Made by a program: the position numbers and the translations under genes
Part shown: piece after piece, positions 1-19,517 of the stretch
Numbering within the stretch: position 1 is the first letter of the stretch
How the letters are laid out: each line of letters begins with the position of its first letter
Assembly: GCA_963692865.2 (NCBI GenBank)
Contig: OY843592.1
Coordinates: forward strand, 1,312,001 to 1,376,000
Length of the DNA stretch: 64,000 nucleotides
Source of the DNA: a bacterium
GTDB taxonomy: Bacteria > UBA8248
Direction of reading: 5' to 3'
The notes under the pieces: generated by a model
Told to the model about the DNA's origin: nothing
What the model saw: only the letters and a program-made list of their open reading frames with translations
The model's database searches: none

Positions 1-1
1 C

Positions 2-2736: not shown

Positions 2737-2793
2737 AAGCCCCCTCCTCATTCAACGGCCCCCGCTTCGCTCCTGCAAACAAAGGAGGTCGTC

Positions 2794-3666: not shown

Positions 3667-3719
3667 GCCCCATGATCATCTTATTTTGACAAGAGCAACC
3701 ATTTTGTGAGGGATATTTT

Positions 3720-4577
3720 ATGCCGCTTCAATACCCCCTGGTGCATGTCGACGACGTAACGCCCGAGAAGATGGAGGAGAAGGAAGGCTGGGCGATCTCC
3801 GAGTTCCGGCTGCCCATCACGGGCGCGCACGGAAGCTCGACGACGGCCTTTCACTCCATCTTCCGGCCCGGCTCCACGCACGCGAAGCACTCACATTCCG
3901 AGTGCGAGGAAATCGCGGTCTACTTGAAGGGCCACGGCGTGGTCGGACAGGGCGAGGAGCGCGCCGAGGTGCGCGAGGGCCACTGCCGCCTCATGCCGAA
4001 AGGCTCGACGCATTTCTTCTATAACGAGACGAAAGACGAGGAGGCGATGGTGGTCGGCTTCTACCTCGGCGCGCCGAGCGTGGCGGGCACGGGCTATGAA
4101 TTTTGCGGCGACGTAACGCAAGCCGATCTCGACATGCCGCGCGAGGGCATTACCGACGGCATCCTGGTGCATCTGGACGACGTAAGACCCGAGAACATGA
4201 ACGAGGGGGAGGGCTGGTCGATCACCGACTTCAGGCTCCCCATCGGGCGGCGCAACGGTAGCGACACGACGCTGTTCCGCGCGCGCTTTTTTCCGAGCGC
4301 GGTGCACAAGAAGCACAGGCACGACAACTGCGAGGAAATCTACTACATCATCAGCGGCCACGGCCTGGCGGGGGCGGGTCCGGACCGCGTCGAGGTGCGC
4401 GGCGGGCACTTCCACTACATCCCCAGGGGGGTGGAGCACTGGCTCCACAACCTGAGCGATACCGATCCCATCGAGGCGGTGGGGATTTATATCGGAAGCG
4501 GGAGCGTGGAGGAGACCGGCTACGTCTACATGGGCGACGTGACCGAAGAGGACATCAAGGCGCGCACGCCGCTCTAG
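3720..4577 (+). CDS. Bicupin protein (paralogue of upstream gene)
   Basis: Two cupin repeats HAKHSHSECEE..TH and HKKHRHDNCEE..EHW. Confidence 0.88.
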   Translation: MPLQYPLVHVDDVTPEKMEEKEGWAISEFRLPITGAHGSSTTAFHSIFRPGSTHAKHSHSECEEIAVYLKGHGVVGQGEERAEVREGHCRLMPKGSTHFFYNETKDEEAMVVGFYLGAPSVAGTGYEFCGDVTQADLDMPREGITDGILVHLDDVRPENMNEGEGWSITDFRLPIGRRNGSDTTLFRARFFPSAVHKKHRHDNCEEIYYIISGHGLAGAGPDRVEVRGGHFHYIPRGVEHWLHNLSDTDPIEAVGIYIGSGSVEETGYVYMGDVTEEDIKARTPL

Positions 4578-5090
4578 GGATGTGGAAAAAGACCCCCGAG
4601 GAGGGACATGTAGGGGTTGCCCAAAAAGCTCCCCTGACGAGGGCCTGTTGAAAAAGCCCCGCTCTCGTGATTCGGCGCATGTTGGCCGACCGAGGAGGGT
4701 GGAAACAATCATTCCCCCCTTGAGGGTCGGGCTTCCCGAGGGGAAAGCCCGACGAAGAGGCCGAGCCCTTAGGCGAAGGCCGATTCGGTGGGGGGACATG
4801 CCACAGAAAAAAACTCCCTCACCTCACCGTCGGTCTTCCCCGAGAGAGACCGGCCCTCAAGGGGGAGTGATTTCTCTCTCGTCGGTCGTGCAAACCTCGT
4901 TCATCGGACTTTTTCAACAGCCCCGGCAAGGGGCGGGGGTTTTGTAAGGGCGGACACGCAGGTCCGCCCCTACGGGATCATCGTGGATCGCGTCGATACC
5001 TCATTGGCCGGGACTTCTTCAACGCCCTCATATGCGCCCCTGCAAAACCAACCTCCCCGCCCCTTCCCCGGAAGGGATTTTTCGACAACC
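4577..5090. mobile_element. Nested MITE-like repeat cluster B
   Basis: Best pair GGGCCTGTTGAAAAAG (4641-4656) / CTTTTTCAACAGCCCC (4909-4924); degenerate outer left ends at ~4577 and ~4613 and right ends at ~5013 and ~5077. Confidence 0.65.
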
Positions 5091-5231
5091 CAACGGCGCT
5101 GCCTGCGGGTCCAATACGCGAAGCGGGCGGCCGCGCGCATATTCCGTTTGCCTTTCGGGCGCGCCGTGATATGCTTGCGGGGCGTATGGGAGTTGTGGTC
5201 GTACCGACATTAAAAATAACGGAGCGAAACC

Positions 5232-5780
5232 ATGAAGATAAACGAGGCGGCGGCGGATAAAGTCAAGGAAATCATGGAGCAAAACGGCGGCGGTTTCGCC
5301 GGAATCCTGATCAGCTTCGAGGGCGGCTACAAGCTCGACCTGGTGCGGGACGAGGATGCGGACCAGTACATCCGCGTGGAGAATCCCCTGCTGGGTGTCT
5401 TCGCCTCGCCCGAGCACGTCGATAGAGCAGAAAAGGCCCAGATCGAGTTCGTCACCGAAGGCCCCACGAGCGGCTTCAAGGTGACGCGCGAGATGACCGA
5501 CGGCGATATGTCTCTCCTGGAGCAGATTCAGGAGATCATCGACACGGAGATCAACCCGGCCGTCGCGTCCCACGGCGGCGTCATCAACCTGCTGGACGTG
5601 GAGGAGAAGCGCGTTTTCGTGCAGATGGGCGGCGGCTGCGCGGGCTGCGGCATGGCGGACGTGACGCTCAAGTCAGGCGTCGAGGCCAGGCTTCAGCAAC
5701 TAGACCCCGAGATTCAGGTGGTCGATACCACCGACCACGCGGCGGGCACGAACCCCTACTACGCGCCGACGAAGAAATAG
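5232..5780 (+). CDS. nfuA: NfuA/NifU-family Fe-S cluster carrier
   Basis: INPAVASHGG, GGGCAGC, DTTDHAAGTNPYY C-terminus; degenerate A-type N-domain. Confidence 0.85.
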   Translation: MKINEAAADKVKEIMEQNGGGFAGILISFEGGYKLDLVRDEDADQYIRVENPLLGVFASPEHVDRAEKAQIEFVTEGPTSGFKVTREMTDGDMSLLEQIQEIIDTEINPAVASHGGVINLLDVEEKRVFVQMGGGCAGCGMADVTLKSGVEARLQQLDPEIQVVDTTDHAAGTNPYYAPTKK

Positions 5781-5799
5781 TTTTTCTCGCTCGATCATG

Positions 5800-5827
5800 A
5801 AGGGCCGGCCGAAAGGCCGGCCTTTTT
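5800..5827 (+). terminator. Rho-independent terminator between convergent genes
   Basis: GGCCGGCC-GAAA-GGCCGGCC followed by TTTTT. Confidence 0.85.
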
Positions 5828-5833
5828 GTTTGG

Positions 5834-7087
5834 CTATTCCCCGATATCGAACCCGAGTTTCGCGTGTGCTGTGCGCAGGGCGGACTCCACCTCTTCGGGC
5901 CGCTCCCCCTTGGCGAAGATGAAACCCAGGTATCTCTCTCCTTCCGGCAGCGGAACGACGCGGCCTCCGATGTGGATGGATATGTCGACCTCCACGATTC
6001 CGGGCACGGCCATGGCCTCCTCTTTGCCCTCGACCCCCTTCAGAACTCCCGCGCCGGGGATGGGAATCATCATGACGCCGGAAGCCTTTTTCTCGCGCTC
6101 CAATGATGGGGGCGCGACGCCCAGGGCTTGGGAGAGGATGAGGCATTCGAGCGACGCGCCGCCGCCGAACTCGAGCGCGCCTGAGCATTTCCCGCCGATG
6201 GCGCGGCTCGCCACGTCGATCACATGGATTTCGCCCGCGTCGTTGATTCTCAGTTCCGCGTGTAGGGGCCCCTCGCGCAGGCGGATGGCGTGGGCGGCGC
6301 GTATGGTTTCTTCACGGATTTTCTCTTGCATATCATCAGGAAGCCTGGAGGGCGTGACGTAGATGGTCTCCTCGAAAAAGGGGCCTTCCAAAGGATCCGG
6401 CTTGTCGAAGATGGCGAGAATGTGCGCCTCGCCGCGCACGACGAGGCCCTCCACCGCCACCTCGACGCCTTCGAGATAATCTTCCACCAGGATCATCTGC
6501 GCTTCCGCCCCGCCGCGCGCGATGGCCTCGGGGTCTTCCAATATCGCGCCGATACGGCGGTAGGCCTCAGAGAATTCAGCCGGGTCGTTCGCGCGAATCA
6601 CGCCCCGGCTCGCGGCGAGAAAGGTGGGTTTCAGCACACAGGGGTAGCTGATGCTTCCGGCGATTTCCTCCGGTTCCTCCTGTGCTGAGACCAGACGGAA
6701 CGAGGGCGAGGGCAGGCCTTCTTCCGAGAGCACCTTTCTCAGTTCGTATTTGCTCCGCGTCGTGCGGGAGGCCTCCACGGGGTGGTAAGGCAGCCCCAGC
6801 GCTTCGGCGGCCATCGCGCCCAGGATGAGCGTGTCGTCGTCCACCGGAGCGACCGCGTCGATGGGAAACTCCCTTGCGAACGATTGTATCGAGGCCGCGC
6901 CCGCTTCGGGTTCGTTGTAATCGAGCGTGATGGAGCCGCCCGGGTTCAGTTCGGCCAGCAGGTCGGGCCGGTCGGTTCCCACCGTGACGCGGACGCCCAT
7001 CTCCTGAGCCGCCGCCATGTAGGCGGAGGCGCGGTAGGTGGCCGTCGTCATGAGCAGGAGAACGCGCCTCCCGTCTTCAGGTGGCAT
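5834..7087 (-). CDS. ATP-grasp domain ligase
   Basis: YPCVLKP..ASRGV, VEDYLEG.EVAVEG, GPLHAELR; ATG 7087 overlaps the stop of the upstream SDR. Confidence 0.87.
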   Translation of the reverse strand: MPPEDGRRVLLLMTTATYRASAYMAAAQEMGVRVTVGTDRPDLLAELNPGGSITLDYNEPEAGAASIQSFAREFPIDAVAPVDDDTLILGAMAAEALGLPYHPVEASRTTRSKYELRKVLSEEGLPSPSFRLVSAQEEPEEIAGSISYPCVLKPTFLAASRGVIRANDPAEFSEAYRRIGAILEDPEAIARGGAEAQMILVEDYLEGVEVAVEGLVVRGEAHILAIFDKPDPLEGPFFEETIYVTPSRLPDDMQEKIREETIRAAHAIRLREGPLHAELRINDAGEIHVIDVASRAIGGKCSGALEFGGGASLECLILSQALGVAPPSLEREKKASGVMMIPIPGAGVLKGVEGKEEAMAVPGIVEVDISIHIGGRVVPLPEGERYLGFIFAKGERPEEVESALRTAHAKLGFDIGE

Positions 7088-7856
7088 ACCATCCGCCGTC
7101 GACAAGGAGCGACGTGCCCGTGACGAGGCTGCTCGCCTCGGAAGCGAGGAAGATGGCCGGCCCCACCAGTTCGCTCATCTGCCCGAAGCGGCCCATGGGC
7201 GTTCTCTCGCAGATGGCGTCGTAGATGAGTTCGTCCTCCTGCAGGGAGGCGGTGAGTTCCGTTTCGATGAAGGTGGGGCAGATGGCGTTCACCTGGATGT
7301 TGTCCGTCGCGTACTCGCGGGCGAAAACGCGCGTCAGGCCGATGAGACCGCTCTTCGAGGACGTATAAGGCCCGTAGCATTGCTGACGGGGGTTTCTGAA
7401 AACGGACCATCCCATCAGGGAGGAGATGTTGATCACCTTGCCGCCGCCCGCTTTTTTCATCTCCTCGCCCGCGCGCCGCGTGATGAAGAAGATGCTCTTG
7501 AGATTGAGGTCGAGGATCCTGTCCCAGTCCGCCTCGCTGATGTCCCAGAGCGTTTTCCGCACGTTCGTGCCCGCGTTGTTCACCAGGATGGTGAGGCCGC
7601 CGAGTGCGGCGGCGGCTTCCACCACCATGCGCTCGGCGGATTCCATGTCGGTCACGTCGGCCTGGATGAGCGCGCACTTGCGGCCCATGTTCTCGATGGC
7701 TTCTTTCGCTTCGCCGGCGGGTTCGATGTCGATGTCCGCGATGACGACGTCCGCGCCCGCTGCTGCGAAGCCCTCGGCCAGCGTGCGCCCGATGCCGCGC
7801 GCGGCGCCCGTTACGAGCGCCTTTGCGCCGCTCAGATCGAAAAGGGATTGGCTCAT
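7077..7856 (-). CDS. SDR-family oxidoreductase
   Basis: TGAARGIG, NNAG, YTSSK, VDGG. Confidence 0.93.
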   Translation of the reverse strand: MSQSLFDLSGAKALVTGAARGIGRTLAEGFAAAGADVVIADIDIEPAGEAKEAIENMGRKCALIQADVTDMESAERMVVEAAAALGGLTILVNNAGTNVRKTLWDISEADWDRILDLNLKSIFFITRRAGEEMKKAGGGKVINISSLMGWSVFRNPRQQCYGPYTSSKSGLIGLTRVFAREYATDNIQVNAICPTFIETELTASLQEDELIYDAICERTPMGRFGQMSELVGPAIFLASEASSLVTGTSLLVDGGWYAT

Positions 7857-8042
7857 GGGTGGTTCTCCTTTTGAGGGGTGTCGGGTTTTTCCCGATTCTC
7901 TCCACCGGGGCGTTCCGGGTCAATGGGCGCGGGGCCTTCTCGTTGGCCTCTGGGGGAGAGTGTGATAATCAGTAGAGAGACTTTCTCGAATTTTTTTCGT
8001 GCTCGCATGAGAGTGGTTTTTTCGCTTTCACAGGAGTGGACG

Positions 8043-9692
8043 ATGGCTAAGCCCAAGGATAACGGCGCGAAAAAAGAGCGCCCCGTCCGCGAGGCGGCCT
8101 ACAACTCGGGCAAGCCCGTGCCCGTGGTCTATGGGCCCGATGCGCCGGATGCCGCGTACCGGGAAAAGATAGGCTTACCGGGAGAATACCCCTACACGCG
8201 GGGCATCTACCCCACGATGTACCGGGGCTCGCTTTGGACGATGCGCCAGTACGCGGGTTTTTCCACCTCGGCGGACACCAACGCGCGGTTCCACTTTCTG
8301 CTCGGAAACGGCCAGACGGGCCTCTCGATGGCCTACGATCTCCCCACGCAGCTCGGTCTGGATTCTGACGACGAAGCCGCGCAGGACGACGTGGGCCGTT
8401 TGGGCGTCGCCGTGGACACAGCCGAGGACATGGCGGACGTTTTTGACGGTATACCGCTCGACAGGGTGAGCGTCTCGCACACCATCAACTCGACCGCCGC
8501 CATCATCCAGGCGTTCTGGCTCATCGCCGCCGAGCGGCAGGGGGTCGCGCTGGAGAAGCTGCGCGGCACCTTTCAGAACGACATGCTCAAGGAATACATC
8601 GGCCGGGGCACGTGGATATTCCCCCCGAGACCCTCCATGCGCCTCGTGGCGGACATCATCGAGTACAACGCGAAGCGCTGCCCGCGCGTGAACGCCGTCA
8701 GCGTATCAGCCACCCACATCGCCGAAACGGGCGCCACTCTCGCGCAGGACGTCGCCTTCCCGATCCTGAACGCGCTGGCCTACATCCGGGAACTCACCGG
8801 GCGCGGCCTCCACGTGGACGACTTCGTGCCCACGATGTCGTTTCACCTCTCGGTCGGCGGCGGCGTAGGGCCGTTCAACCTGCTCGAATCGGTCGGCAAG
8901 CTGCGCGCGGCGCGGCGCATCTGGGCGCGCACGATGAAGGATGAATACGGCGCGAAAAACCCCAGGACCATGCAGCTCAAATTCTCGACCGGCAACTGCG
9001 GCAGCCGCATGGCGGCGCGCGAACCGCTCAACAACATCGTGCGCCAGACGCTCTACACCCTGGCCGCCGTGCTGGGCGGCACGCGCTCGGTCAACATGGC
9101 GTGTTTCGACGAGGCCTTCGAGATTCCCTCGGACGAGTCCATCCGCACGGCGCTCAGAATCCAGCAGGTCATCGCGCACGAGAGCGGCGTGGCCGACACC
9201 GTGGATCCGCTGGCTGGCGGCTATGCGCTGGAGGCCGTGACGGATCAGGTGGAAGAGGAGATTCAGGCCATCGTGGACGATTACGAATCGCGCGGCGGAA
9301 TCGTCCCCTTCATCGAGAGCGGGGAGATTCAAAGGCTTCTCGCTAGGCAGGCCTACGAGCACCAGCGCAAGATCGCCTCGGGCGAGCAGGTGTGGGTGGG
9401 GGTGAACAGGTTCACCTCAGAAGATGAAGACCGCATGAGCGCGGGCGAGGGCCTCTACGAGGCGGACGATTCCGTGCTCGAAAAACAAATGGAGCGCCTC
9501 GCGCGGGTGAAGGCCGCCCGCGATGCGGGCGAGGTGGCTGATCAACTGGAAAAGCTGGCGAGTGCGTGCGAGTCGAAGGAGAACCTCGTGCCTTATCTCA
9601 TGGACGCCGCCCGCGCGCGCCTCACGGTGGGGGAGATGACCGGGGTGATGCGCGGCGCGTTCGGCGCCTACGTGGAGCCGTCGGTCGTTTGA
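8043..9692 (+). CDS. B12-dependent acyl-CoA mutase, large (substrate-binding) subunit
   Basis: PGEYPYTRG, WTMRQYAGF, QNDMLKE, DPLAG; AGGAG RBS. Confidence 0.93.
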   Translation: MAKPKDNGAKKERPVREAAYNSGKPVPVVYGPDAPDAAYREKIGLPGEYPYTRGIYPTMYRGSLWTMRQYAGFSTSADTNARFHFLLGNGQTGLSMAYDLPTQLGLDSDDEAAQDDVGRLGVAVDTAEDMADVFDGIPLDRVSVSHTINSTAAIIQAFWLIAAERQGVALEKLRGTFQNDMLKEYIGRGTWIFPPRPSMRLVADIIEYNAKRCPRVNAVSVSATHIAETGATLAQDVAFPILNALAYIRELTGRGLHVDDFVPTMSFHLSVGGGVGPFNLLESVGKLRAARRIWARTMKDEYGAKNPRTMQLKFSTGNCGSRMAAREPLNNIVRQTLYTLAAVLGGTRSVNMACFDEAFEIPSDESIRTALRIQQVIAHESGVADTVDPLAGGYALEAVTDQVEEEIQAIVDDYESRGGIVPFIESGEIQRLLARQAYEHQRKIASGEQVWVGVNRFTSEDEDRMSAGEGLYEADDSVLEKQMERLARVKAARDAGEVADQLEKLASACESKENLVPYLMDAARARLTVGEMTGVMRGAFGAYVEPSVV

Positions 9693-10105
9693 TGGCGAAC
9701 GGGACCAAGCGCATACGGGTGCTGATGGCGAAGCCGGGCCTCGACGGGCACGACCGCGGGGTCAAGGTCATCATCCACGCGCTGAGAGACGCAGGCATGG
9801 AGGTGATCTACTCAGGCCTCAGGCAGACGGTCGAGCAGATCGTCTCCGTCGCGATTCAGGAGAACGTGGACGTGATCGGCCTGAGCATCCTCTCGGGTTC
9901 CTACATGGGGATCGCGCGCAGGCTCATGGCGAGAATCAGGGAAGAGGAACTCGATGATTGCCTCGTCATTCTGGGCGGGAACATCCTGGAGCGCGACGTG
10001 GCGGGGCTGAAATCCTTAGGAATAGCCGAAGTGTTCAACCACCATGCGGAGATGGCCGAAGTCGTCTCCTACATCAGGAACAACGCGGCAGCCGGCGCGG
10101 CCTGA
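9692..10105 (+). CDS. Acyl-CoA mutase cobalamin-binding small subunit
   Basis: KPGLDGHDRG (DxHxxG), GLSILSG, GG; TGATG coupling. Confidence 0.93.
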   Translation: MANGTKRIRVLMAKPGLDGHDRGVKVIIHALRDAGMEVIYSGLRQTVEQIVSVAIQENVDVIGLSILSGSYMGIARRLMARIREEELDDCLVILGGNILERDVAGLKSLGIAEVFNHHAEMAEVVSYIRNNAAAGAA

Positions 10106-10121
10106 CGGCGGCGCATCTATC

Positions 10122-11330
10122 GTGGGGGAGTCAGTTTTGGAAAAGCCGCTGGAGGGCGTGCGCATACTCGATCTTTCCGCCCTGCTCGCAGGCCCTTACG
10201 GCAGCATGGTGCTGGCCGATCTGGGCGCGGACGTCATCAAGATAGAGGCGCCGGGCAGGGGCGACCTCGTCCGCACCATGCCCCCGCACTACGTCGGCGA
10301 GACGAGCGCCTACTTCATCGCGCTCAACAGGAACAAGCGGGGTATTTTCCTGAACTTGAAGGACGAGGAGGGCTACCGCGTCTTCTGCGAGATGGTGAAG
10401 CGCTCCGACGTCGTTTACGACAACTACCGCCCCGGCGTCCTGGAGCGGCTCGGCGCGGACTACGAAACGCTTAAAGTAGTGAACCCGCGCATCATCAGCG
10501 CCTCCGTCACCGGCTACGGCCTCACAGGCCCCCAGAAGGACAAGCCCGCGCTCGACCTCATCATCCAGGGGCGCGGCGGCATCATGAGCTTCACCGGCGA
10601 GCCGGGCAGGCCGCCCGTGCGCCTGGGCGTTCCCATGGGGGACATGGGAGGCGGCCTGTTCGCCGCTCACGGCATTCTGGCGGCGCTCTACAAGCGCGAG
10701 CGGACGGGCGTCGGCCAGAAGGTGGACGTTTCGCTCCTCGACAGCCAGTTGTACCTCGCGAGCTACCGCGCGCAGTACTACCTGACGGCGGGCGACGTGG
10801 CGGAGCCGATGGGCACGGGCCACGCCTCCGCCGTTCCCATCGGCGCGTACCAGTGCGGCGACGGCAAGTGGCTCGTGCTCGACGCCATACTGGATCATTT
10901 CTTCGAGAGCCTCTGCGACGCGCTGGGCCATCCCGAGTGGAGGGACGACCCGAGGATGAAGGATCGCCCCACCCGCCTCGATAACCGCGAATACGTGGAC
11001 GCCAAACTCTCGGAAGTCTACAAGACGAACACCGCCGCGCACTGGATAGAGCGAATCGATGCGCACGGCGTGCCCTGCGGGCCGATTCAGACCATCGACG
11101 AGGCGCTGAACGACCCCCAGACGCGCTCGCGCGAGATGGTCGTGGAGATGACGCACCCCGAACTCGGCGATATGAACACGTTCAACACGCCCATCAAGAT
11201 GGAGGGCACGTGGGGCTCCACTCCCGCGCCGCCTCCCCTGATGGGTGAGCACACCGAAGAGGTGCTCAGGGAAGTGCTCGATCTGGGCGATGCGGAAATC
11301 GAAAGGTTAAAAGCGCGCAAGGCGATTTGA
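10122..11330 (+). CDS. Family III CoA-transferase (CaiB/BaiF)
   Basis: LADLGADVIKIE, NRNKR, NYRPG, catalytic Asp in MGDMGGG; start uncertain. Confidence 0.92.
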   Translation: MGESVLEKPLEGVRILDLSALLAGPYGSMVLADLGADVIKIEAPGRGDLVRTMPPHYVGETSAYFIALNRNKRGIFLNLKDEEGYRVFCEMVKRSDVVYDNYRPGVLERLGADYETLKVVNPRIISASVTGYGLTGPQKDKPALDLIIQGRGGIMSFTGEPGRPPVRLGVPMGDMGGGLFAAHGILAALYKRERTGVGQKVDVSLLDSQLYLASYRAQYYLTAGDVAEPMGTGHASAVPIGAYQCGDGKWLVLDAILDHFFESLCDALGHPEWRDDPRMKDRPTRLDNREYVDAKLSEVYKTNTAAHWIERIDAHGVPCGPIQTIDEALNDPQTRSREMVVEMTHPELGDMNTFNTPIKMEGTWGSTPAPPPLMGEHTEEVLREVLDLGDAEIERLKARKAI

Positions 11331-11341
11331 GGGGGCTTGTC

Positions 11342-12130
11342 ATGTTCCATGACAAGAAGGCTTTCGTGTTCGACCTGGAAGGGGTTTTCTTCGCGGGAGA
11401 CGAGGTGATGCCCGGCGGATCGGAGTTGATGCGGGCCGTCAAGGCGAGGAACCTCCCCCATCGCTTCATCACGAACATCAGCCGCAGTACGGCGGCGGAG
11501 ATTCGCGCCCACATGGCGGGTATCGGCCTGGACCCGGGGGAGAACCTCATCGTGGCCGCGCTGGACCGGGTCGGCTCGTTTTTGAGGAAGAACTTCGGAT
11601 CGGGCAGAGCGTACGTGCTGGGGACGGATTCGCTGAAACGCGCGGTCGCGTCGGGCGGTTTCCAGATTTTGGGGCATGACGAGGAAGATAGGGCCGACGT
11701 CGTGCTCGTCGGGCTGGATGAAGCACTTACCTACGAGACGCTGAGCGCGGCAGCGCGTGCGGTGAGCCGGGGCGCGCGTTTCGTCGCCATGAACCCCGAC
11801 GTGCGCCTGCCGAGGGAGGACGGTTCGTTTTCACTCGGCGGGGGCGCCATCATGGCGTCCGTGCGGGCGGCGGCGGGCCGGGAGCCGGTGTTTTTCGGAA
11901 AGCCCGAGCCTTTCCTGTTCGAAGAAGCGCTGGAGGAGCTGGGCGTGGAGGCGCGCCACGCCGTCATGGTGGGGGACAACCTGAGGACGGACATCGCGGG
12001 CGGCCAGAGGGTGGGAATGGCCACCGTGTGGGTGAACCGCTGGGGCGTGATTGCCGGGGACCCGGATGTGACGGCGGACCTGGAAGTCAAGACGCTCGAT
12101 GAACTGATGCCGCATCTTCCGGGCGGCTAG
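11342..12130 (+). CDS. HAD-IIA (NagD-like) hydrolase
   Basis: FDLEGV, TN, GKP, MVGDNLRTDI. Confidence 0.9.
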   Translation: MFHDKKAFVFDLEGVFFAGDEVMPGGSELMRAVKARNLPHRFITNISRSTAAEIRAHMAGIGLDPGENLIVAALDRVGSFLRKNFGSGRAYVLGTDSLKRAVASGGFQILGHDEEDRADVVLVGLDEALTYETLSAAARAVSRGARFVAMNPDVRLPREDGSFSLGGGAIMASVRAAAGREPVFFGKPEPFLFEEALEELGVEARHAVMVGDNLRTDIAGGQRVGMATVWVNRWGVIAGDPDVTADLEVKTLDELMPHLPGG

Positions 12131-12153
12131 GATTTTGAGATAGAGAGGACGAC

Positions 12154-12909
12154 ATGGCGCTGGTGGAATACGAGGTGAGGGACAAGCTGGCCTGCATCAC
12201 GCTGAACAGGCCGGAGAAGATGAACGCCATCAACCACGAGATGAGCGAGCGCATCTTCGCGCTGTTCGACGAGATGGAGCGCGACCCCGGCGTGTGGGGC
12301 TGCCTGATCACGGGGAACGGAAAGGCCTTTTCGAGCGGGCACGACCTCACCGAACCGCCGCCCGAAGATAGGGAAGTCAAACCCGTCTCGGACCTCTATC
12401 AGGTCATCATGGAGTTGTACAAGCCCTGCTTCGCGGCGATCAACGGGTTCTGCCTGGCGGGCGGGGCGGGCATCGCGCTTTCCTGCGACGTGCGCGTGAT
12501 GGCCGAGGAAACGCAACTCGGCTGGCCCCAGGTCGTGCGCGGCATCTCCTCCGTCAGCGGGCCGATTCTCCTGGCGAAGCTGCTGCCCTTCAATCTCGCG
12601 CACTATCACCTGTTCACCGGCGAGCCCATCGACGCGGAGACCGCGCTGAGGCTCGGCCTCGTGAACAAGGTGGTTCCCAGGGAGAACGTCTTAGAGGAGA
12701 CCGAGAAGATCGCGCGACGGGTGCTGGCGAATGCGCCTTTGGCGGTGCGCGCCATCAAGGAGATCACCGTCCGCGCGCGCGACATGACGATGGAAGACGC
12801 CCTGCGCTTCGGCGACGTGATCCTGAAACGCCTCCTCGAGACCGAGGACGCCGAAGAGGGCGTACGGGCCTTCAAGGAGAAGCGGCCACCGAATTTCAAG
12901 GGAAGGTAA
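12154..12909 (+). CDS. Crotonase/enoyl-CoA hydratase family protein with non-canonical active site
   Basis: ITLNRPEKMNA, FSSGHDL, AAINGFCLAGG, AFKEKRPPNFKGR. Confidence 0.92.
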   Translation: MALVEYEVRDKLACITLNRPEKMNAINHEMSERIFALFDEMERDPGVWGCLITGNGKAFSSGHDLTEPPPEDREVKPVSDLYQVIMELYKPCFAAINGFCLAGGAGIALSCDVRVMAEETQLGWPQVVRGISSVSGPILLAKLLPFNLAHYHLFTGEPIDAETALRLGLVNKVVPRENVLEETEKIARRVLANAPLAVRAIKEITVRARDMTMEDALRFGDVILKRLLETEDAEEGVRAFKEKRPPNFKGR

Positions 12910-12942
12910 GGTATGGGGGGCCATGTCGTCCATACATATTCC

Positions 12943-13018
12943 GTAGGGACAGGCCCCCGCGCCTGTCCTCATGAGAAACAACCACAGGGGCAGGACAACC
13001 CAAAAGGGTTGTCCCTAC
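12943..13018. repeat. GTAG-type REP doublet
   Basis: GTAGGGACAGGCCCCCGCGCCTGTCC / GGACAACCCAAAAGGGTTGTCCCTAC; inverted relative at 25737-25813. Confidence 0.8.
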
Positions 13019-13129
13019 ATTCCTTCGGGGTCACCCTGTTTGTCCCGCACCCGCCTTGCGCGCTTGAGCGAGTCGTTGCATAACGAATTCTCCTGATTCT
13101 TCGCTCCTTGCACATGAAAGGAGGCCGCG

Positions 13130-14290
13130 GTGGATTTCGACCTCACCGACTCTCAGCGCGATATCCGGCAAAAGGCCCGTGAAATCGCCACGAACCAGAT
13201 AGCGCATAAGGCGGCGCATTGGGACGAGACCGAGGAATACCCCTGGGAGAACGCGCGAATCCTGGCCGAGGCCGGCTTCATGGGCATGAACATCCCGGAG
13301 GAATTCGGCGGACCCGAGCGCCCGCTCATCGAGGCCGTCCTGGTGGTCGAGGAGATGGCGAAGGTATGCGGCATCACGGGGCGCATCGTGGTGGACAGCA
13401 ACATGGGCGTGGTGGGGGCGATCATCAAATACGGAACCGAGGCGCAGAAGAAAAAATATCTGCCCATGGTGTTGAACGGCGATAAGCCCGCCATCGTCAT
13501 CACAGAGCCCGAGGCGGGGAGCGCCGCCACCGACATGACGACGCGGGCCGTGCTCGACGGCGATGAATATATCCTGAACGGCAAGAAGAAATGGATTACC
13601 GGCGCGGGCGTCTCCCACATCAACCTCGTGTTCGCCCGCGTGGTGCACGGCGGGGACGAGCAGGGAATCGGCGCGCTGATCGTGGAGTTGGGGGCGGAGG
13701 GTTTCCGCATCGGAGAGCGCAACTACATGATGGGCTTGCGGGGAATCCCCGAGAGCGAGGAGATTTTCGAGAACTGCCGCGTGCCGCAGGAAAACCTGGT
13801 GGCGGTGGGCTTCGGCCGCCTGATGGCCGCCTACAACGCGCAGCGCGTGGGAGCCGGCACGGTGGCCTTGGGACTCGCCGAGGGCGCCTTTGCGCAGGCG
13901 GTGGAATACGCAAAAAAACGCCACCAGTTCGGCCGCCCGATATCCGAATTCCAGGGGCTTCAGTGGATTCTGGCGGATGCGCGCATACAGCTCGACGCCG
14001 CGCGGCTCCTGCTCCACCGGGCGGCGGTGCAGGAAGACCCGAAGACGGGCTTTCCCGACATGCACCTCGCGGCGGTCGCCAAGACGTTTTCGGCGGAAGC
14101 CTCGATCAGGGTGACGAACGACGCGCTCCAGATTTTCGGAGCCGCGGGCTATTCGCGCGATCTGCCTATCGAGCGCATGGCGCGCGACGTGCGGATGTTC
14201 ACCATCGGCGGCGGCACCACCCAGGCGCAGCGAAACGTGATCGCCTCGGGTATTTTCGGGAGAAAATTCTCGCAGCGGCGGGGAGAGTGA
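13130..14290 (+). CDS. Acyl-CoA dehydrogenase-fold protein, 3-sulfinopropionyl-CoA desulfinase-like
   Basis: GRIVVDSN, GDKPAI.I.EP.AGSAA, MGLRGIPE, YNAQRVGAG, RMFTIGGGT; no catalytic Glu; these motifs match my recollection of Advenella AcdDPN7. Confidence 0.8.
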   Translation: MDFDLTDSQRDIRQKAREIATNQIAHKAAHWDETEEYPWENARILAEAGFMGMNIPEEFGGPERPLIEAVLVVEEMAKVCGITGRIVVDSNMGVVGAIIKYGTEAQKKKYLPMVLNGDKPAIVITEPEAGSAATDMTTRAVLDGDEYILNGKKKWITGAGVSHINLVFARVVHGGDEQGIGALIVELGAEGFRIGERNYMMGLRGIPESEEIFENCRVPQENLVAVGFGRLMAAYNAQRVGAGTVALGLAEGAFAQAVEYAKKRHQFGRPISEFQGLQWILADARIQLDAARLLLHRAAVQEDPKTGFPDMHLAAVAKTFSAEASIRVTNDALQIFGAAGYSRDLPIERMARDVRMFTIGGGTTQAQRNVIASGIFGRKFSQRRGE

Positions 14291-14403
14291 GGATATCCAG
14301 ATAGTGAGCGTATAGCGGATTTGCCCCGCGTCCGCTTGGCTTTTGGGGCTGGAACCTCCCTTGGGGAGTAGATAAACGCTGGCCGTATTGCAAAGGAAAG
14401 GTG

Positions 14404-14745
14404 ATGGCTATCTTTACGTTGCAGGAAGCCCGCGATCTTCTGCCGCGGGTCAAGGAAGTGACGCAGCACTACCACGACGTCGTCGAGGAGTTGCGCGAAG
14501 AGTTGGAAAGCCCTGAAGGGTCGGACGATATCAAGCGCATCGAGGGACTCATGAACGACGCGGTCGGCGAGTGGGTGAAGGCCGTCAGAAACTTGGGCGT
14601 GGAAGTCAAAGGCTTGTGGCTGGCGGATTTCGATTCAGGAGACGGCTATTACTACTGCTGGAAACTCGGCGAGGACGACATCGAACATTTCCACGGCTAC
14701 GAAGCGGGGTTCGCAGGCCGCCGTCCCATTTCGTTGCTGGAGTAA
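14404..14745 (+). CDS. DUF2203-family protein
   Basis: FTLQEARDLLP start, LADF, YCWKLGE, FH..E.GFAGRRP. Confidence 0.8.
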   Translation: MAIFTLQEARDLLPRVKEVTQHYHDVVEELREELESPEGSDDIKRIEGLMNDAVGEWVKAVRNLGVEVKGLWLADFDSGDGYYYCWKLGEDDIEHFHGYEAGFAGRRPISLLE

Positions 14746-14792
14746 GACAAGATATTTCTGACCGACGGAACCGCTCCCGCAGATGATTCCCC

Positions 14793-16016
14793 CTAGCCGT
14801 ATTGCAGGATCATGCCCGTCAGGCCCAGTTCGATGCAGCCGGCCACCTCGATGCAGCGAGAGTTCGCAGGCGGCATGACCACGCCGGTGATGCCCTCCCG
14901 GTAGAACCGCTCGAAAGGATAGCGCCGCGCGATGGAGCGGCCCCCCACGAGCCGCATCGCGTGCTGCACCACCTTGGCGCAGACCTCACACGAGACGTAT
15001 TTCGACTGCATGACGGTCTTCACCGTGTCCTGGTTCGCCATGCCGTCTCCCTGTTCCTTTACGTGACTCGCCTCGTAAAGCAGCATCCGCGCGGCCCTGA
15101 GTTCCGAGCTCAACTCGCCGATGTTGCTCTGGTACATCTCGTTGTGGCTCAAGGGTTCGGGGTTGGGCGGGTACTGCGTCGTCCGCACGTACTCCGCCAG
15201 ATGATTGTAGGCGCCTTCCGCGATGCCTAGATAGGCGGCGGAGAAGCCCAGGTGGAACATGGTGATGTCGATTTTCCCCAGCGCGCCGATGAAGTTCTCG
15301 CCCCCGAGGATGTCCTCGTTCGGCACGAAGGTGTCCTCGAAGATGATGTCGTCGCTCGCCGTTCCCCGCATCGACATGGTGTCCCACACCACCTTCACGG
15401 ATGAACCCGCGTAATCCTTGTGGAGCACGGCGGTCATGATGGCCTCGGCGGCGGTCTTTTTCCCCTCCAGGAACCCGGTCGTGAAGTAATAGTCGGCGTG
15501 CTCGCCTATCGAGGCGGAAATCTTCCTGCCGCTCAGCCGGTAGCCGCCCTCGACGGGAGAGAAGATGGTCTTGAGCGTCACGAGGTGCCGGAAGCTCATG
15601 CCGCGCTCCGCCGTGACGGAGGAGAACAGCTTGCCGTTCTCCACGATGTCTGGGAGCACGCGCTTTTTCTGCTCCTCGTTCGCGAGGGCGAAGAACAGGC
15701 TCACGCAGGTCTGGTGCATGTTCCAGGTCAGCGCGGTGGAAGCGCACGCCTTGCCCAGTTCGGCGAGCGCCATGTTGTAGGTGAGGGAATTGGCGCCCGA
15801 ACCGCCCCATTCCTCGGGGATGCACAGGGCGTTCAGGCCCGCGTCGACGAGCAGCTTGTAGTTCTCGGTGGGGAAGCGGCCCTCGCGGTCTATCTCGGCC
15901 GCAAGTTCTTCCATCTGGGGCGCGAGGGCTTTGATTTTGTCGATGATTTCCTTGTCGTATTTCAGATCCATGAGTGTTTCATAAGACTCACTCGCCGCGG
16001 TTGTGGGACCCATCAT
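14793..16016 (-). CDS. Acyl-CoA dehydrogenase-superfamily flavoprotein (possibly monooxygenase type)
   Basis: STALTWNMH, LSGRK, WDTMSMRGTAS, FERFYRE..VMPP; AGGAGG RBS. Confidence 0.87.
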   Translation of the reverse strand: MMGPTTAASESYETLMDLKYDKEIIDKIKALAPQMEELAAEIDREGRFPTENYKLLVDAGLNALCIPEEWGGSGANSLTYNMALAELGKACASTALTWNMHQTCVSLFFALANEEQKKRVLPDIVENGKLFSSVTAERGMSFRHLVTLKTIFSPVEGGYRLSGRKISASIGEHADYYFTTGFLEGKKTAAEAIMTAVLHKDYAGSSVKVVWDTMSMRGTASDDIIFEDTFVPNEDILGGENFIGALGKIDITMFHLGFSAAYLGIAEGAYNHLAEYVRTTQYPPNPEPLSHNEMYQSNIGELSSELRAARMLLYEASHVKEQGDGMANQDTVKTVMQSKYVSCEVCAKVVQHAMRLVGGRSIARRYPFERFYREGITGVVMPPANSRCIEVAGCIELGLTGMILQYG

Positions 16017-16260
16017 CTTTCCTCCTGTTCATCGAGGCGAATAGCGTCGGCCTCGACATCAGACGGCAATTCGAATCAGGGGTCGAGCGGGAGGACATGC
16101 CCGACGCATCTCGTGTTCAACTCATCGCAATCTCCATCCATTGACGTTCCTGACCGTCCTGCTCCACCGGCTCGATTTTGAGAGGCGAACGCGCCGTATG
16201 GCGAAAGGCGCACCACTCCACTAGGGGCAGACGGCCATCATACCAGATACCTCTCCGAGT

Positions 16261-16290
16261 TTGACATCGCTTCTTCGAGGCATGTAATCT
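16261..16290 (+). promoter_or_regulatory. Sigma70-like promoter
   Basis: Perfect TTGACA at 16261-16266, then TGTAAT/TAATCT at 16-18 bp spacing, upstream of the 16387 gene. Confidence 0.5.
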
Positions 16291-16386
16291 CCGCTGGGTT
16301 TTCATACTTTAACCCATTGAGATAATTCTTGCACCAGCCGTGAATTGGTTTTGGTTTCGTTGCTCGTGTTTTTCGGGAGATTTTCC

Positions 16387-17388
16387 ATGCCTCCCCGCAT
16401 ACTCGTCTCCACCACGCCGTTCGGTGAGATCGACCCCAAGCCCGTCGAGATGCTTGAAAGCGCAGGGGTGGAGTACGTGCGCAACACGCTGGGCAAACGC
16501 CCGAACGAGGATGAATTCGCCGAAATGATTCGCGATGGTTTCGACGCCGTCATCGCGGGTCTGGAGCCCTTCACGCCGAGAATACTGGATTTGGCTGCCG
16601 GGCTGCGGTTCATATCGCGCGCCACGGTGGGTCTCGAGACGGTGGATTTGAACGCCGCGCGCGAGAGAAACATTCTCGTGGCGAACACGCCCGGGGCCAA
16701 CTCGGAAGCCGTGGCGGAACTGACGCTCAGCCACCTGCTCACGCTCCTGCGCGGCGTGCATCGCTCGCACAACGCGCTCCTGCGCGGCGAGTGGCTCCAG
16801 TTCATGGGCCGCACGCTCGATGAGATTACCCTGGGCGTCATCGGCGTGGGCCGCATCGGCAAGCGGGTGATCCGCCACGTATCGGGCTTCGGCGCCAGGA
16901 TCATCGCGAACGATCTCGCGCCCGATCTGGAATTCGGCGAGCGCTACGGCGTGGAATGGACCGAAAAGGAAGAAATCTACCGGCGCGCCGACGCCGTCTC
17001 CCTCCACGTTCCCGCCACGCCGAAGACGATTCACATGGTGGGTGAAGACGAGATCGCGATGATGAAAAAAGGCGCGTTCCTCATCAACACGGCGCGCGGC
17101 GTCGTCGTGGACGATGAGGCGCTGGCGCGCGCGCTTCGCTCGGGCCGGCTGGGGGGCGCAGGCATAGACGTTTTTCCCGAAGAACCCTACCGGGGCGTCC
17201 TGACGGAAGCGCCCAACTGCATTCTCACCGCGCACCTGGGCGCGCGGGCGCGCTCCTCTCGACTGCAGATGGAACTGGACGCGACGGAAAACGTCCTGTG
17301 CTTTCTGGCGGGCGAGCCGGTTCCGGGCCTCGTGCCGGATGAGGAATATGAGATGCAGCGCATCATCACCGCCGACGCGAACGCCTGA
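16387..17388 (+). CDS. D-2-hydroxyacid / phosphoglycerate dehydrogenase-like
   Basis: NTPGAN, GVIGVGRIG, SLHVP, INTARG, DVFPEEP, HLG. Confidence 0.92.
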   Translation: MPPRILVSTTPFGEIDPKPVEMLESAGVEYVRNTLGKRPNEDEFAEMIRDGFDAVIAGLEPFTPRILDLAAGLRFISRATVGLETVDLNAARERNILVANTPGANSEAVAELTLSHLLTLLRGVHRSHNALLRGEWLQFMGRTLDEITLGVIGVGRIGKRVIRHVSGFGARIIANDLAPDLEFGERYGVEWTEKEEIYRRADAVSLHVPATPKTIHMVGEDEIAMMKKGAFLINTARGVVVDDEALARALRSGRLGGAGIDVFPEEPYRGVLTEAPNCILTAHLGARARSSRLQMELDATENVLCFLAGEPVPGLVPDEEYEMQRIITADANA

Positions 17389-17426
17389 ACCGGGAATTAT
17401 ATCCTCCCAAACTTTGGAGTCATTCG

Positions 17427-18191
17427 ATGCCCAAGACACCTGATTATTTCGCGGGAAAAACCCTCATCGTCACCGGCGCGGCCAGCGGCATCGGCAAGGA
17501 GACCTCGCTCATTTTCGGGCGCGAAGGGGCCAACGTCTTCTGCGCGGACCTGGACGAGGAAGGCGCCGCCGAGGTCGCCGAGCGCGTTACGGAAAACGGC
17601 GGCCGGGGCGTTCACATGAAGGCGGACGTCACCTCGCGCGAGGAGGCGTTCGCCATGACGAGGCGCGCAAAGGAGCGTTTCGGCCGCGTCGATTTTTCGC
17701 TCAACTCCGCGGGGGCGGCTCTCAGGCGTTCAGATTTCTTAGGCATCGAAGACGACCTTTGGGAGCGGACGTTCGATTTGAACGTCAAGGGCGTTTTCTA
17801 CTGCATGCAGGCCGCGATTCCCGAAATGCTCGAAAACGGCGGAGGCGTCATCGTCAACATCGGGAGCATGGCGCACAAGCGCGGAGGCCCCGGCCACTCG
17901 GTGCACTACGCGGCGGCGAAGGGTGCGGTGGTGACGATGAGCATGGGTGTGGGCCGCGAGTTCGCGGACAGGGGCATCCGGTGCATGTCCATATCGCCGG
18001 GGCCCATCGACACGCCGTTTCACGACGTCTCCTCGGAGGCGCTCAAGGAGTCGATGCGCGCTCAGATACCGATGGGCCGCTTCGGCACGCCGGAGGAGAT
18101 CGGCGAGCTGGTGCTGTTCATGTGCTCGGATGCGTGCGCGTTCATGACGGCGGACACCGTGTACGTGAACGGCGGCGGGGGCTGGAAGTAG
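17427..18191 (+). CDS. SDR-family oxidoreductase
   Basis: TGAASGIG, NSAG, YAAAK, PGPIDT. Confidence 0.92.
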   Translation: MPKTPDYFAGKTLIVTGAASGIGKETSLIFGREGANVFCADLDEEGAAEVAERVTENGGRGVHMKADVTSREEAFAMTRRAKERFGRVDFSLNSAGAALRRSDFLGIEDDLWERTFDLNVKGVFYCMQAAIPEMLENGGGVIVNIGSMAHKRGGPGHSVHYAAAKGAVVTMSMGVGREFADRGIRCMSISPGPIDTPFHDVSSEALKESMRAQIPMGRFGTPEEIGELVLFMCSDACAFMTADTVYVNGGGGWK

Positions 18192-18202
18192 GGCGCGCTA
18201 GG

Positions 18203-18427
18203 TCATCTTCTCGAAAACAGGTTCAAGAGCAGCGTCAGCACGATGCTGATGACGATGCAGGTCACCACCGGGAAGGAAAAACTCCAGTTCTTGCCGCGCA
18301 GGTGAATGTCGCCCGGCAGTTTTCCCAGAAACGGAATCTTGGGCGCAACCAGAAATATCACTCCCAAGACCATCAGGACCGCGCCGAGCAGAATCAGCGT
18401 TTTCCCGAAACCGCCGAAAGGCTCCAT
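18203..18427 (-). CDS. DUF2905 small membrane protein
   Basis: LGKLPGDI..F.FP..TCI.ISI.LT; typical position after ruvB. Confidence 0.85.
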   Translation of the reverse strand: MEPFGGFGKTLILLGAVLMVLGVIFLVAPKIPFLGKLPGDIHLRGKNWSFSFPVVTCIVISIVLTLLLNLFSRR

Positions 18428-18442
18428 CTGCGTTCTTTCCTT

Positions 18443-19507
18443 TTAAGGGGATGTCTCGGTTTCTTCATCCTTCGCGGCGCCCTCCCAAAGCTCCCGCTGG
18501 GCCCCTTTTGGCAGCGCGGCGCCAAGGTGTGAATACGCCGCCGAGGGCGCACGCCTGCCGCCGCGCGTCCTCTGCACGAAGCCCGCCCGCAGCAGGAACG
18601 GCTCCACCATGTCCACGAGGGTGTCCGTCTCCTCGTTCATGGTGGCGGCGATGGCCTCCACCCCCACCGGACCGCCGCCGTACTGGTCGATGATCGTCCT
18701 CAGATACTTCCTGTCCAGCCCGTCGAGACCCAGTTCGTCCACGCCCTCCATGGCGAGCGCCTCGCGCGTCTTGGAGAGGCTGATGGCGCCGTCGCCGCGC
18801 GCCTGGCAGTAATCGCGCGTCCAGAGCAGGAGCCGGTTCGCCGTGCGCGGCGTGCCCCGGCTTCTCCGGGCGAGTTCGCTCGCAGCTTCTTCTTCGATAG
18901 GGGCTTCGAGGCGAGCCGCGCTCCTCAGGAGTATCTGCACGAGCTCGTCTTCTGAATAAAAATCCACGTGGTAGACGAGATAGAAGCGCTCCCTCAAGGC
19001 GGCGGTCAGGGCGCCGGGGCGCGTCGTGGCGCCCACGGCCGTGAATATCTTGAGCGGGAAGTTGATGGTGCGGGCCATGGGGCCTCGGTCGACGACGAAG
19101 TCCACGCGGTAGTCCTCCATCGCGGGGTAGAGGAATTCCTCGACCGCGCTGGGCATCCGGTGGATCTCGTCGATGAAGAGCACGTCGCCCTGCGTGAGGC
19201 CCGTGAGGATTCCCATGAGGTCCGCGGGCCTCGATAGAGAGGGGCCGGAGGTCTTGACGAGGCGCGTTCCCATCTCTTCGGAGATGATGTGTGAAAGCGT
19301 GGTTTTCCCCAGACCCGGCGGCCCGTGGAAGAGAATGTGGCCCAGGGGTTCGTTCCTCTTGCGCGAGGCTTCGAGCGCAATCCGCAGCTTGGCCACGAGA
19401 TCGGTCTGGCCCACGTATTCTTCGAGCCTCGAGGGTCTGAGCGAGGTGAAGGTTTGCTCCTCCGCCGGACTCGCCGCCTTGGCGCTCACGCGCCGCTCGA
19501 TGACCAT
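18443..19507 (-). CDS. ruvB: Holliday junction branch migration helicase RuvB
   Basis: LRP..EYVGQ, GPPGLGKTT, FIDEIHR, LYPAMED, SRGTPR, GGPVG. Confidence 0.97.
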   Translation of the reverse strand: MVIERRVSAKAASPAEEQTFTSLRPSRLEEYVGQTDLVAKLRIALEASRKRNEPLGHILFHGPPGLGKTTLSHIISEEMGTRLVKTSGPSLSRPADLMGILTGLTQGDVLFIDEIHRMPSAVEEFLYPAMEDYRVDFVVDRGPMARTINFPLKIFTAVGATTRPGALTAALRERFYLVYHVDFYSEDELVQILLRSAARLEAPIEEEAASELARRSRGTPRTANRLLLWTRDYCQARGDGAISLSKTREALAMEGVDELGLDGLDRKYLRTIIDQYGGGPVGVEAIAATMNEETDTLVDMVEPFLLRAGFVQRTRGGRRAPSAAYSHLGAALPKGAQRELWEGAAKDEETETSP

Positions 19508-19517
19508 GGTTTTCTCC

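Follow-up and report, generated by a model that had tools for sequence, protein, structure and literature searches.

A B12-dependent acyl-CoA mutase clade with rebuilt active-site motifs and a family III CoA-transferase partner, seen from a locus of a UBA8248 bacterium

What does a B12-dependent acyl-CoA mutase do when much of its active site departs from that of methylmalonyl-CoA mutase (MCM), and which of its gene neighbors act with it? The question is raised by a stretch of 64,000 nucleotides (here, the window) from a bacterium of the GTDB lineage UBA8248 (assembly GCA_963692865.2, contig OY843592.1, positions 1,312,001 to 1,376,000 of the forward strand). Between positions 8043 and 14290 of the window, genes for the large and small subunits of a mutase, a family III CoA-transferase, a haloacid dehalogenase (HAD)-type hydrolase, a crotonase and a protein of the acyl-CoA dehydrogenase (ACAD) fold follow one another. 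An earlier note, made from the sequence alone, had read them as one new pathway for rearrangement of an unusual acyl-CoA, possibly sulfur- or heteroatom-bearing. The gene set, spacing and odd motifs that it listed were all confirmed from the DNA, by profile searches and by alignments. The conserved unit, however, was found to consist of three genes, those of the mutase large subunit (mutL, 8043 to 9692), the mutase small subunit (mutS, 9692 to 10105) and the CoA-transferase (10122 to 11330). We propose, at even odds, that this unit is a module for a carboxylate-bearing acyl-CoA, probably a substituted succinyl- or malonyl-CoA rather than methylmalonyl-CoA.

The product of mutL (+ strand), which carries the substrate-binding TIM barrel, belongs to the acyl-CoA mutase superfamily, with 578 bits to PF01642 (cut-off 22.1) and 590.5 bits to TIGR00641 (cut-off 303.8). 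Its closest solved chain was 2-hydroxyisobutyryl-CoA mutase (HCM; 4r3u, 7e-135), and human MCM scored 1e-113. By residue alignment to these two proteins, the window mutase was found to keep RQY, FQND, KEYIGRG and the catalytic His, such that the residues aligned with MCM Tyr89, Gln197, Arg207 and His244 are all retained. By contrast, it reads SATH in place of SGYH, FSTGNCG in place of H-x-Q-T-x-G and NMACFDEA in place of HTNxxDEA, and has a 5-residue insertion relative to both HCM and human MCM. The retained RQY Tyr and KE...R Arg and the three replacements had been reported in the earlier note. Thus the mutase resembles MCM (P. shermanii 1req, human 2xij) in fold, family profiles, its Tyr, Arg, Gln and His, and a partner with the B12 motif DxHxxG, but differs by the Thr that replaces the Tyr before the His and by the loss of the H-x-Q-T and H-T-N blocks; this Tyr and both blocks are common to all of the MCM, isobutyryl-CoA mutase (ICM)-type and HCM-type rows examined. 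We assume the structural roles generally given to MCM Tyr243, His328, Gln330 and Asn366 at these positions.

Neither of two other known specificities was indicated. The window mutase shares with HCM (HcmAB) a split large and small architecture, but HCM has RQI, AQKE, SGYH, HCQT and HTNGYDEA, whereas the window mutase reads RQY and IGRG at the first two sites; the HCM-specific Ile and Asp (Ile90 and Asp117, whose roles we take as assumed) are absent. Similarly, the Phe and Gln that stand for Tyr and Arg in ICM were not found, and the match to the IcmF model was 266.6 bits compared to a cut-off of 1500. The product of mutS (+ strand; PF02310, 78 bits) has the B12-binding motifs DGHDRG (the DxHxxG site), LSILSGS and LGGN, and with 126.9 bits to TIGR00640 (cut-off 57.45) is recognized as the partner domain of such a mutase.

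The motifs S[AG]TH and FSTG were detected in 120/120 of the best database homologues of the mutase, and therefore are not chance differences of one gene. We named the clade with S[AG]TH, FSTG and NxxC[FY]DE motifs STG. Its members keep the residues by which MCM holds carboxylate and thioester (the RQY Tyr, KE..R Arg, xxTH His and FQND Gln), while the neighboring Tyr and the H-x-Q-T and H-T-N blocks are replaced by small residues. In a tree of 61 rows, the 27 STG rows formed one clade with a Shimodaira-Hasegawa-like approximate likelihood ratio test (SH-aLRT) value of 99, within which a Nitrospinota subclade, A, that includes the window mutase had a support of 100. All canonical MCM-, ICM-type and HCM-type rows, as recognized by their motifs, fell outside the clade, and the phylogeny proposed as a check by the earlier note thus placed the mutase apart from these rows. 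Groups with SGPH and AGAH motifs were the successive neighbors of STG (support 98 and 91). Within STG, subclade A carries an additional Arg (GSRM) in the rebuilt FSTG loop, which other STG subclades were found to be without. An archaeal-type split MCM was considered as the source of the odd motifs and rejected, because the Nitrososphaeria locus examined (L072) has canonical motifs.

STG motifs were present in 59 of 80 genomic loci examined. Of these, 22 close loci are from metagenome-assembled genomes (MAGs) of Nitrospinota or 'Tectomicrobia' (69-97% mutase identity), and the majority of the 37 distant loci (51-58%) come from MAGs of Syntrophaceae, Desulfobacteraceae and other deltaproteobacteria. 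Among the best 120 database matches, only ten 90%-identity clusters reached at least 70% identity to the window mutase, with the rest at 58% or below. An orthologue of subclade A (at least 71% identity) was detected in 28 of the 51 genomes of the phylum that were examined, and all 28 belong to one family. Overall, the clade comprises thousands of metagenomic sequences and is widespread in Syntrophaceae and Desulfobacteraceae. Homologues among the 120 + 120 matches listed were labelled only generically, as methylmalonyl-CoA mutase (family), and were all from MAGs or metagenomes, with no cultured organism among them. On plasmids of cultured bacteria, 426 records matched the mutase, all below 60% identity (best 48%), and included no STG member.

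The remaining 21 of the 80 loci were found to have canonical-motif rows and three odd groups. One reads AGAHF/GVVCGG/FT[AC]A[WY]DE and usually has a crotonase gene directly upstream, the second reads SGPH/GGGGG/LLAAYDEA, and the third, RLY/SGGDGT, occurs in MAGs of actinobacteria and has a family III transferase close by. Thus, at least three more uncharacterized mutase motif groups exist besides STG.

Which neighbors belong to the mutase was examined by comparison of these loci. The mutS gene adjoins mutL in 22/22 close loci, and the CoA-transferase gene adjoins the mutase in 21/22, the single miss being at a contig end. An orthologous CoA-transferase (49-56% identity) also flanks the mutase in 19 of the 37 distant STG loci. 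In the window, as read from the DNA, mutL and mutS overlap by 1 nt (TGATG), and a gap of 16 nt separates mutS from the transferase gene (+ strand). The transferase (CaiB/BaiF family) matches PF02515 with 441 bits over 366/366 positions. Seven NCBIfam models were matched below cut-off, the best being CoA:oxalate, succinate-glutarate and succinyl-CoA:mesaconate CoA-transferases; the closest solved relative was succinate-hydroxymethylglutarate CoA-transferase (9br7, 3.6e-85). These relatives use succinyl-CoA with dicarboxylates. The same type of CoA-transferase activity is reported for IaaL (PMC8360864) and ThnP (PMC11659651). Based on the nearest relatives together with IaaL and ThnP, we infer that the window transferase may activate a free carboxylic acid with CoA taken from succinyl-CoA or, alternatively, move CoA between the two carboxyls of one dicarboxylate.

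The more distant STG loci were found to have genes for a carboxyltransferase, a glyoxalase-fold protein similar to methylmalonyl-CoA epimerase, a CoA-transferase of the acetyl-CoA hydrolase type and OAD-beta. Also near STG relatives were Tct (TctA/TctC) tricarboxylate transporters, MmgE/PrpD, a protein of the phosphoenolpyruvate mutase/isocitrate lyase family, and genes for enzymes of the 3-hydroxyisobutyrate dehydrogenase type and for an FAD-linked 2-hydroxyacid oxidase. The carboxyltransferase and epimerase-like genes accompany the mutase in subclades C and D. By contrast, no epimerase or carboxylase gene is near the mutase in subclade A.

These neighbors bear on whether STG is simply a second, divergent isozyme of MCM. 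Such an isozyme would regenerate succinyl-CoA, the donor for the adjacent transferase, from methylmalonyl-CoA derived from propionyl-CoA, which in the genus of the window could come from desulfination of 3-sulfinopropanoyl-CoA. We consider this less likely than a substituted substrate, but a strong rival. It is consistent with the retention of the Tyr89, Gln197, Arg207 and His244 equivalents, with the gene sets of subclades C and D, and with a closed loop in which the mutase would make the succinyl-CoA that transferases such as the nearest characterized ones consume. An isozyme of this kind is less readily reconciled with the lack of epimerase and carboxylase genes in subclade A, or with the replacement of the Tyr that adjoins the catalytic His and of two blocks that do not vary among the MCM, ICM-type and HCM-type rows.

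The genomes themselves provide further evidence against a mere isozyme, since canonical-motif MCMs occur in the same genomes. Four PF01642 genes were detected in the window genome, corresponding to a canonical MCM set, an HCM set, an AGAH type and the window gene, the latter with the lowest Pfam score of the four; the paralogues are at G000:C1:1426200-1427732 (L081/L116), 3212332-3213864 (L082/L117) and 2483259-2484803 (L083), the last being the HCM-type gene, away from the window locus. Only three small subunits were found for the four large subunits. The canonical-motif large subunit gene stands alone between YmdB and alanyl-tRNA synthetase genes, with no small subunit gene adjacent, and the AGAH-type gene is preceded by a crotonase gene and followed by one similar to aldehyde:ferredoxin oxidoreductase. 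In a complete genome (G044), two mutases in all were found at E<=1e-100, one of subclade A and one with canonical motifs that is 72% identical to the canonical paralogue of the window genome. In five deltaproteobacterial genomes with STG genes, the number of Pfam matches per genome ranged from 3 to 11, and a canonical-motif gene was found in four of the five. In three deltaproteobacterial genomes, the canonical mutase has its own epimerase-like or carboxyltransferase neighbor and the STG mutase stands with a second set, an arrangement that reveals two parallel modules per genome.

Taken together, the data led us to favor a substituted succinyl- or malonyl-CoA as substrate of the mutase-transferase module, since STG is found alongside complete canonical modules, no longer has the Tyr that in MCM packs beside the substrate, and has relatives that sit among genes of di- and tricarboxylate metabolism. 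Once the acid is activated by the transferase, the mutase would catalyze the usual adenosylcobalamin-dependent radical 1,2-shift of the thioester carbon in the carboxylate-bearing acyl-CoA; the pair interconverted may be a substituted succinyl-CoA and malonyl-CoA of the C5-C6 di- or tricarboxylate type. Precedents for such mutases paired with transferases of this kind also led us to this substrate class. In anaerobic indoleacetate degradation by Aromatoleum aromaticum, the family III CoA-transferase IaaL is followed by IaaGH, a B12-dependent mutase that acts on a substituted succinyl-CoA, and by IaaF (PMC8360864). The split mutases MatB/MatQ and ActD are said to be closest to HCM and are proposed for bulky substituted malonyl- or succinyl-CoAs (PMC5719088). 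Likewise, the split mutase of the ass island of Desulfatibacillum (AK-01) and Smithella is proposed to act on alkyl-substituted succinyl-CoA, and is accompanied by an ArgK chaperone (PMC13685792). The neighbors described for MatB/MatQ, ActD and the ass-island mutases (epimerase, carboxyltransferase and MmgE/PrpD) are similar to those around STG relatives, but unlike at the ass island, no ArgK was seen at the window locus.

Several points weigh against this assignment. Because all of the MCM carboxylate and thioester residues are kept, methylmalonyl-CoA is fully possible as substrate. In subclade D, the CoA-transferase, mutase, carboxyltransferase and epimerase together make up precisely the set required to convert propionate to succinate, and a succinyl-CoA-dependent transferase beside a succinyl-CoA-forming mutase fits plain MCM activity equally well. 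The H-x-Q-T and H-T-N blocks may be in contact with the adenosyl moiety instead of the substrate, and thus their replacement may say nothing on substrate size. Among the rows extracted from one of the STG-bearing genomes (G005), there was no fully canonical paralogue. The tree is a quick IQ-TREE reconstruction of 61 rows with SH-aLRT values as its only support and no bootstraps; its reference classes were recognized by motifs and alignments to PDB entries rather than by assayed sequences, and its rows include neither a solved structure nor a named reference for ethylmalonyl-CoA mutase (ECM), pivalyl-CoA mutase (PCM) or IaaG. In the main texts of the literature searched, no described or assayed STG-like member was found.

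A bolder form of the proposal is that STG is a new class of B12-dependent acyl-CoA mutases for succinyl-CoAs with alkyl, carboxyalkyl or other anion-bearing substituents, and that every such mutase works with a family III CoA-transferase of its own. This class would include a step of the never-isolated 'carbon-skeleton rearrangement' type, and in subclade A a distinct substrate would be recognized through the additional Arg of FSTGxCGSRM. We put this forward tentatively, as an idea that is rather less likely to be right than wrong.

We now turn to the remaining genes of the cluster and to whether they belong to the pathway of the mutase. The crotonase (12154 to 12909, + strand; PF00378, 178 bits), 23 nt downstream of the HAD gene, has Gly and Gln at the positions of the two catalytic Glu residues when aligned to 3-hydroxypropionyl-CoA dehydratase (5zai), and also to 1uiy. 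Both Glu residues, noted as missing earlier, are replaced in 13/13 orthologues, such that the protein lacks the signature of an enoyl-CoA hydratase, and it reaches no NCBIfam equivalog cut-off. The sbm-ygfD-ygfG-ygfH operon of E. coli, which converts succinate to propionate, similarly combines a mutase, a crotonase-fold decarboxylase without the Glu residues and a CoA-transferase. However, the transferase there is of another family, no ArgK-type chaperone gene is at the window locus, and the window crotonase scored 133.7 against the methylmalonyl-CoA decarboxylase model, below its cut-off of 257.

The ACAD-fold protein (13130 to 14290, + strand) is a close homologue of 3-sulfinopropanoyl-CoA desulfinase. 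It matches the model of that enzyme (NF042439) with 551.7 bits, below the equivalog cut-off of 600, and the Advenella desulfinase (AcdDPN7; 5af7/5ahs) with 2.5e-125, compared to 5.7e-84 for the next structure. Residues aligned to Arg84 and Gln246 of 5af7, the roles of which we take for granted here, are kept (GRIVVDSN/YNAQRVG versus GRITVDSN/YNAQRVG) in 12/12 orthologues. All 12 also agree in GGG at the YEG site of acyl-CoA dehydrogenases, and so the ACAD does lack the catalytic Glu, as the earlier note had stated. This absence is not a new oddity, since the desulfinase family is by design without that Glu (PMC8360864).

Several lines of evidence revealed that the crotonase and ACAD genes form a separate block that was added later. 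Their position next to the mutase is limited to a single genus: the crotonase was found beside it in 13/22 and the ACAD in 12/22 close loci, all with at least 85% mutase identity. An ACAD homologue was detected in 22 of the 51 phylum genomes and was missing from 7 of the 28 genomes with the mutase. In the complete genome G044, the order is SDR (short-chain dehydrogenase/reductase) / mutL-mutS-CoA-transferase-HAD / RuvB, and the ACAD homologue (57% identity) lies at a distant chromosomal site. The direct succession of HAD and RuvB genes in this genome reveals 12154-18191 to be an insertion in the genus of the window, and two further loci (L018 and L020) agree. In a genome of the same genus that is 99% complete (G029), the syntenic locus (L122; G029:C10:2432001-2452000) keeps the HAD and ACAD genes intact, while at ~7750-9730 of L122 there are fragments of mutL (residues ~17-49 and ~196-236), a fragment of the transferase gene (~301-397) and a broken crotonase gene. 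This genome represents a natural deletion of the mutase/transferase unit. Thus, the ACAD occurs independently of the mutase.

A repeat was detected at the junction of these two genes. The intergenic seam between crotonase and ACAD (12910 to 13129, 220 nt, no strand) contains a 13-mer at 13006-13018 that has 43 copies in the genome (26 forward, 17 reverse), compared to 0 for the reversed control, and is similar to repetitive extragenic palindromic elements or miniature inverted-repeat transposable elements (REP/MITE-like). One copy is exactly at this seam, and others in the window are at 1203-1215 and 25737-25749. Among relatives, the spacing between crotonase and ACAD is ~0.8 to 2.5 kb.

The single pathway of mutase, transferase, HAD, crotonase and ACAD proposed in the earlier note, with the mutase acting on a sulfur- or heteroatom-bearing acyl-CoA such as a sulfinate analogue of succinyl-CoA, is improbable in light of these findings. 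What speaks for it is the tight gene packing, the joint decay of mutase, transferase and crotonase genes in G029, the close relation of the ACAD to a desulfinase for 3-sulfinopropanoyl-CoA, a structural analogue of succinyl-CoA, and the GSRM Arg of subclade A, which could bind a second anionic group. Against this stand the restriction of the block to the closest mutases, its character as an insertion, the ACAD that persists in G029 although the mutase is lost there and that is unlinked in G044, and the repeat that marks the seam. In addition, the known desulfinase needs no mutase (PMC6370202). Of the cluster conservation on which the earlier proposal depended, the part that held up comprises mutS and the transferase, and the part that did not comprises the crotonase and ACAD. 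Similarly, the suggested sulfur chemistry finds an echo in the desulfinase-like ACAD, but no evidence connects the mutase with sulfur.

The desulfinase itself is known from an organosulfur cluster, act-acdA of Variovorax paradoxus TBEA6, in which its gene is accompanied by those for a family III transferase that depends on succinyl-CoA, for crotonases and for additional ACADs (PMC6370202). The window locus shares with this cluster and AcdDPN7 the family III transferase, the ACAD-fold desulfinase homologue, a crotonase and a further ACAD; it differs in having a mutase and in the reading GGG rather than AGG in its ACAD. Based on the desulfinase-like ACAD and the content of the V. paradoxus cluster, the inserted block probably serves organosulfur breakdown of the 3-sulfinopropionate type. 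The parallel of transferase, crotonase and ACAD also lends support to a second MCM that would process propionyl-CoA from desulfination, but the 7 of 28 mutase-bearing genomes without the ACAD argue against such dependence. A cysteine-dioxygenase-type Mdo was not identified near the window cluster, where the bicupins upstream match general cupin models only.

In this genus the genes could also be read as a module similar to that for indoleacetate (IaaL, IaaGH and IaaF), in which the transferase would yield a substituted succinyl-CoA, the mutase a substituted malonyl-CoA and the GGG-type ACAD, by oxidative decarboxylation, an enoyl-CoA for the crotonase. The two sets agree in the types of enzyme and in the order in which these would act, and GGG for YEG is given as a hallmark of the Glu-less IaaF benzylmalonyl-CoA dehydrogenases (PMC8360864), a likeness to the window ACAD by description and not by sequence. 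Nevertheless, this reading is very unlikely. Among solved ACADs, the desulfinase 5af7 is by a wide margin the nearest to the window protein, and IaaF is placed on an isolated branch apart from the desulfinase (PMC8360864). Moreover, the crotonase lacks both hydratase Glu residues, the linkage is confined to one genus, and no iaa-type genes (hydantoinase, ligase or Mo-enzyme) were seen near the window cluster.

Further genes accompany this insertion. A DUF2203 protein (14401 to 14745, + strand; PF09969, 84.8 bits) goes with the ACAD block and is followed by a second ACAD-fold protein (14793 to 16016, - strand), which weakly matches the models for acryloyl-CoA reductase, SfnB and DszC. A D-2-hydroxyacid dehydrogenase (16345 to 17388, + strand) has 89% identity to an orthologue (at L009) that matches PF02826 and PF00389. 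This gene is probably real, and the longer minus-strand open reading frame that overlaps it (16309-17439), which is without any family match, is probably spurious. RuvB and YebC genes lie past 18.4 kb.

Other genes were constant companions of the mutase. The HAD-IIA hydrolase (NagD/YutF-like; 11327 to 12130, + strand), which overlaps the transferase gene by 4 nt (TTGA), was found beside the mutase in 19/22 close loci; two misses were at contig ends and at one locus (L013) it was not found. It matches TIGR01460 with 144 bits (cut-off 100.15) and YutF (3pdw, 4e-37) as its closest solved relative. Its motif I reads D-L-E-G, with Glu at +2, compared to D-x-D-G, and motifs II to IV are present. This D-[LI]-E-G was not flagged by the earlier note, is unusual for a HAD-IIA phosphatase and is common to 19/19 orthologues, the most distant of which has 54% identity. 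Transcribed divergently from the mutase operon is a gene for the SDR oxidoreductase (7077 to 7856, - strand) followed by one for an ATP-grasp protein of the L-amino-acid-ligase type (5834 to 7105, - strand; PF13535, PF18603), both present in 18/22 close loci; the SDR gene is also at the G029 and G044 loci. We regard the HAD, SDR and ATP-grasp genes as fixed neighbors rather than as parts of one pathway with the mutase. In one Nitrospinota lineage (L022, 10704-12275), a FAD_binding_2 flavoprotein of the fumarate reductase/TcuA type is encoded between the transferase and HAD, which adds to the dicarboxylate setting of STG relatives. Upstream of subclade-B mutases are a DUF169/dephospho-CoA-kinase fusion and a PHP phosphoesterase (L027, 5047-7281; also L025 and L035). 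Together with the HAD of subclade A, these subclade-B genes hint at a recurrent phosphoesterase or CoA-maintenance neighbor.

Farther upstream, two adjacent bicupins (2656-3666 and 3720-4577) are kept in relatives; one of them has a sub-threshold match to the cupin model of dimethylsulfoniopropionate lyase (E 2.7e-4, 21 bits compared to a cut-off of 27). The 15 kb of the genome upstream encode a GntR regulator, an M24 peptidase, an HMGL-like protein and an esterase, with no evident link to the cluster. No riboswitch or other RNA was detected in window positions 1-20000 at E<=0.1, and a promoter and terminator scan of 7000-18500 gave no excess over shuffled sequence (3 versus 1.7 and 9 versus 8.9, respectively).

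To our knowledge, few acyl-CoA mutase specificities have been established (MCM, ICM, ECM, HCM and PCM), and each new one opened a pathway or a biotechnological route. The present analysis corrects an over-extended view of this locus, in that the crotonase and the ACAD without the catalytic Glu make up a module of their own, which probably serves organosulfur breakdown. STG, in turn, is a large and environmentally abundant clade in which the shell of the active site is consistently rebuilt and a CoA-transferase is the fixed partner, and it occurs beside canonical MCMs. Its substrate, once assigned, could explain the parallel 'methylmalonyl-like' modules of syntrophs and sulfate reducers, and could extend the metabolism of sponge-associated Nitrospinota by a rearrangement of the carbon skeleton.

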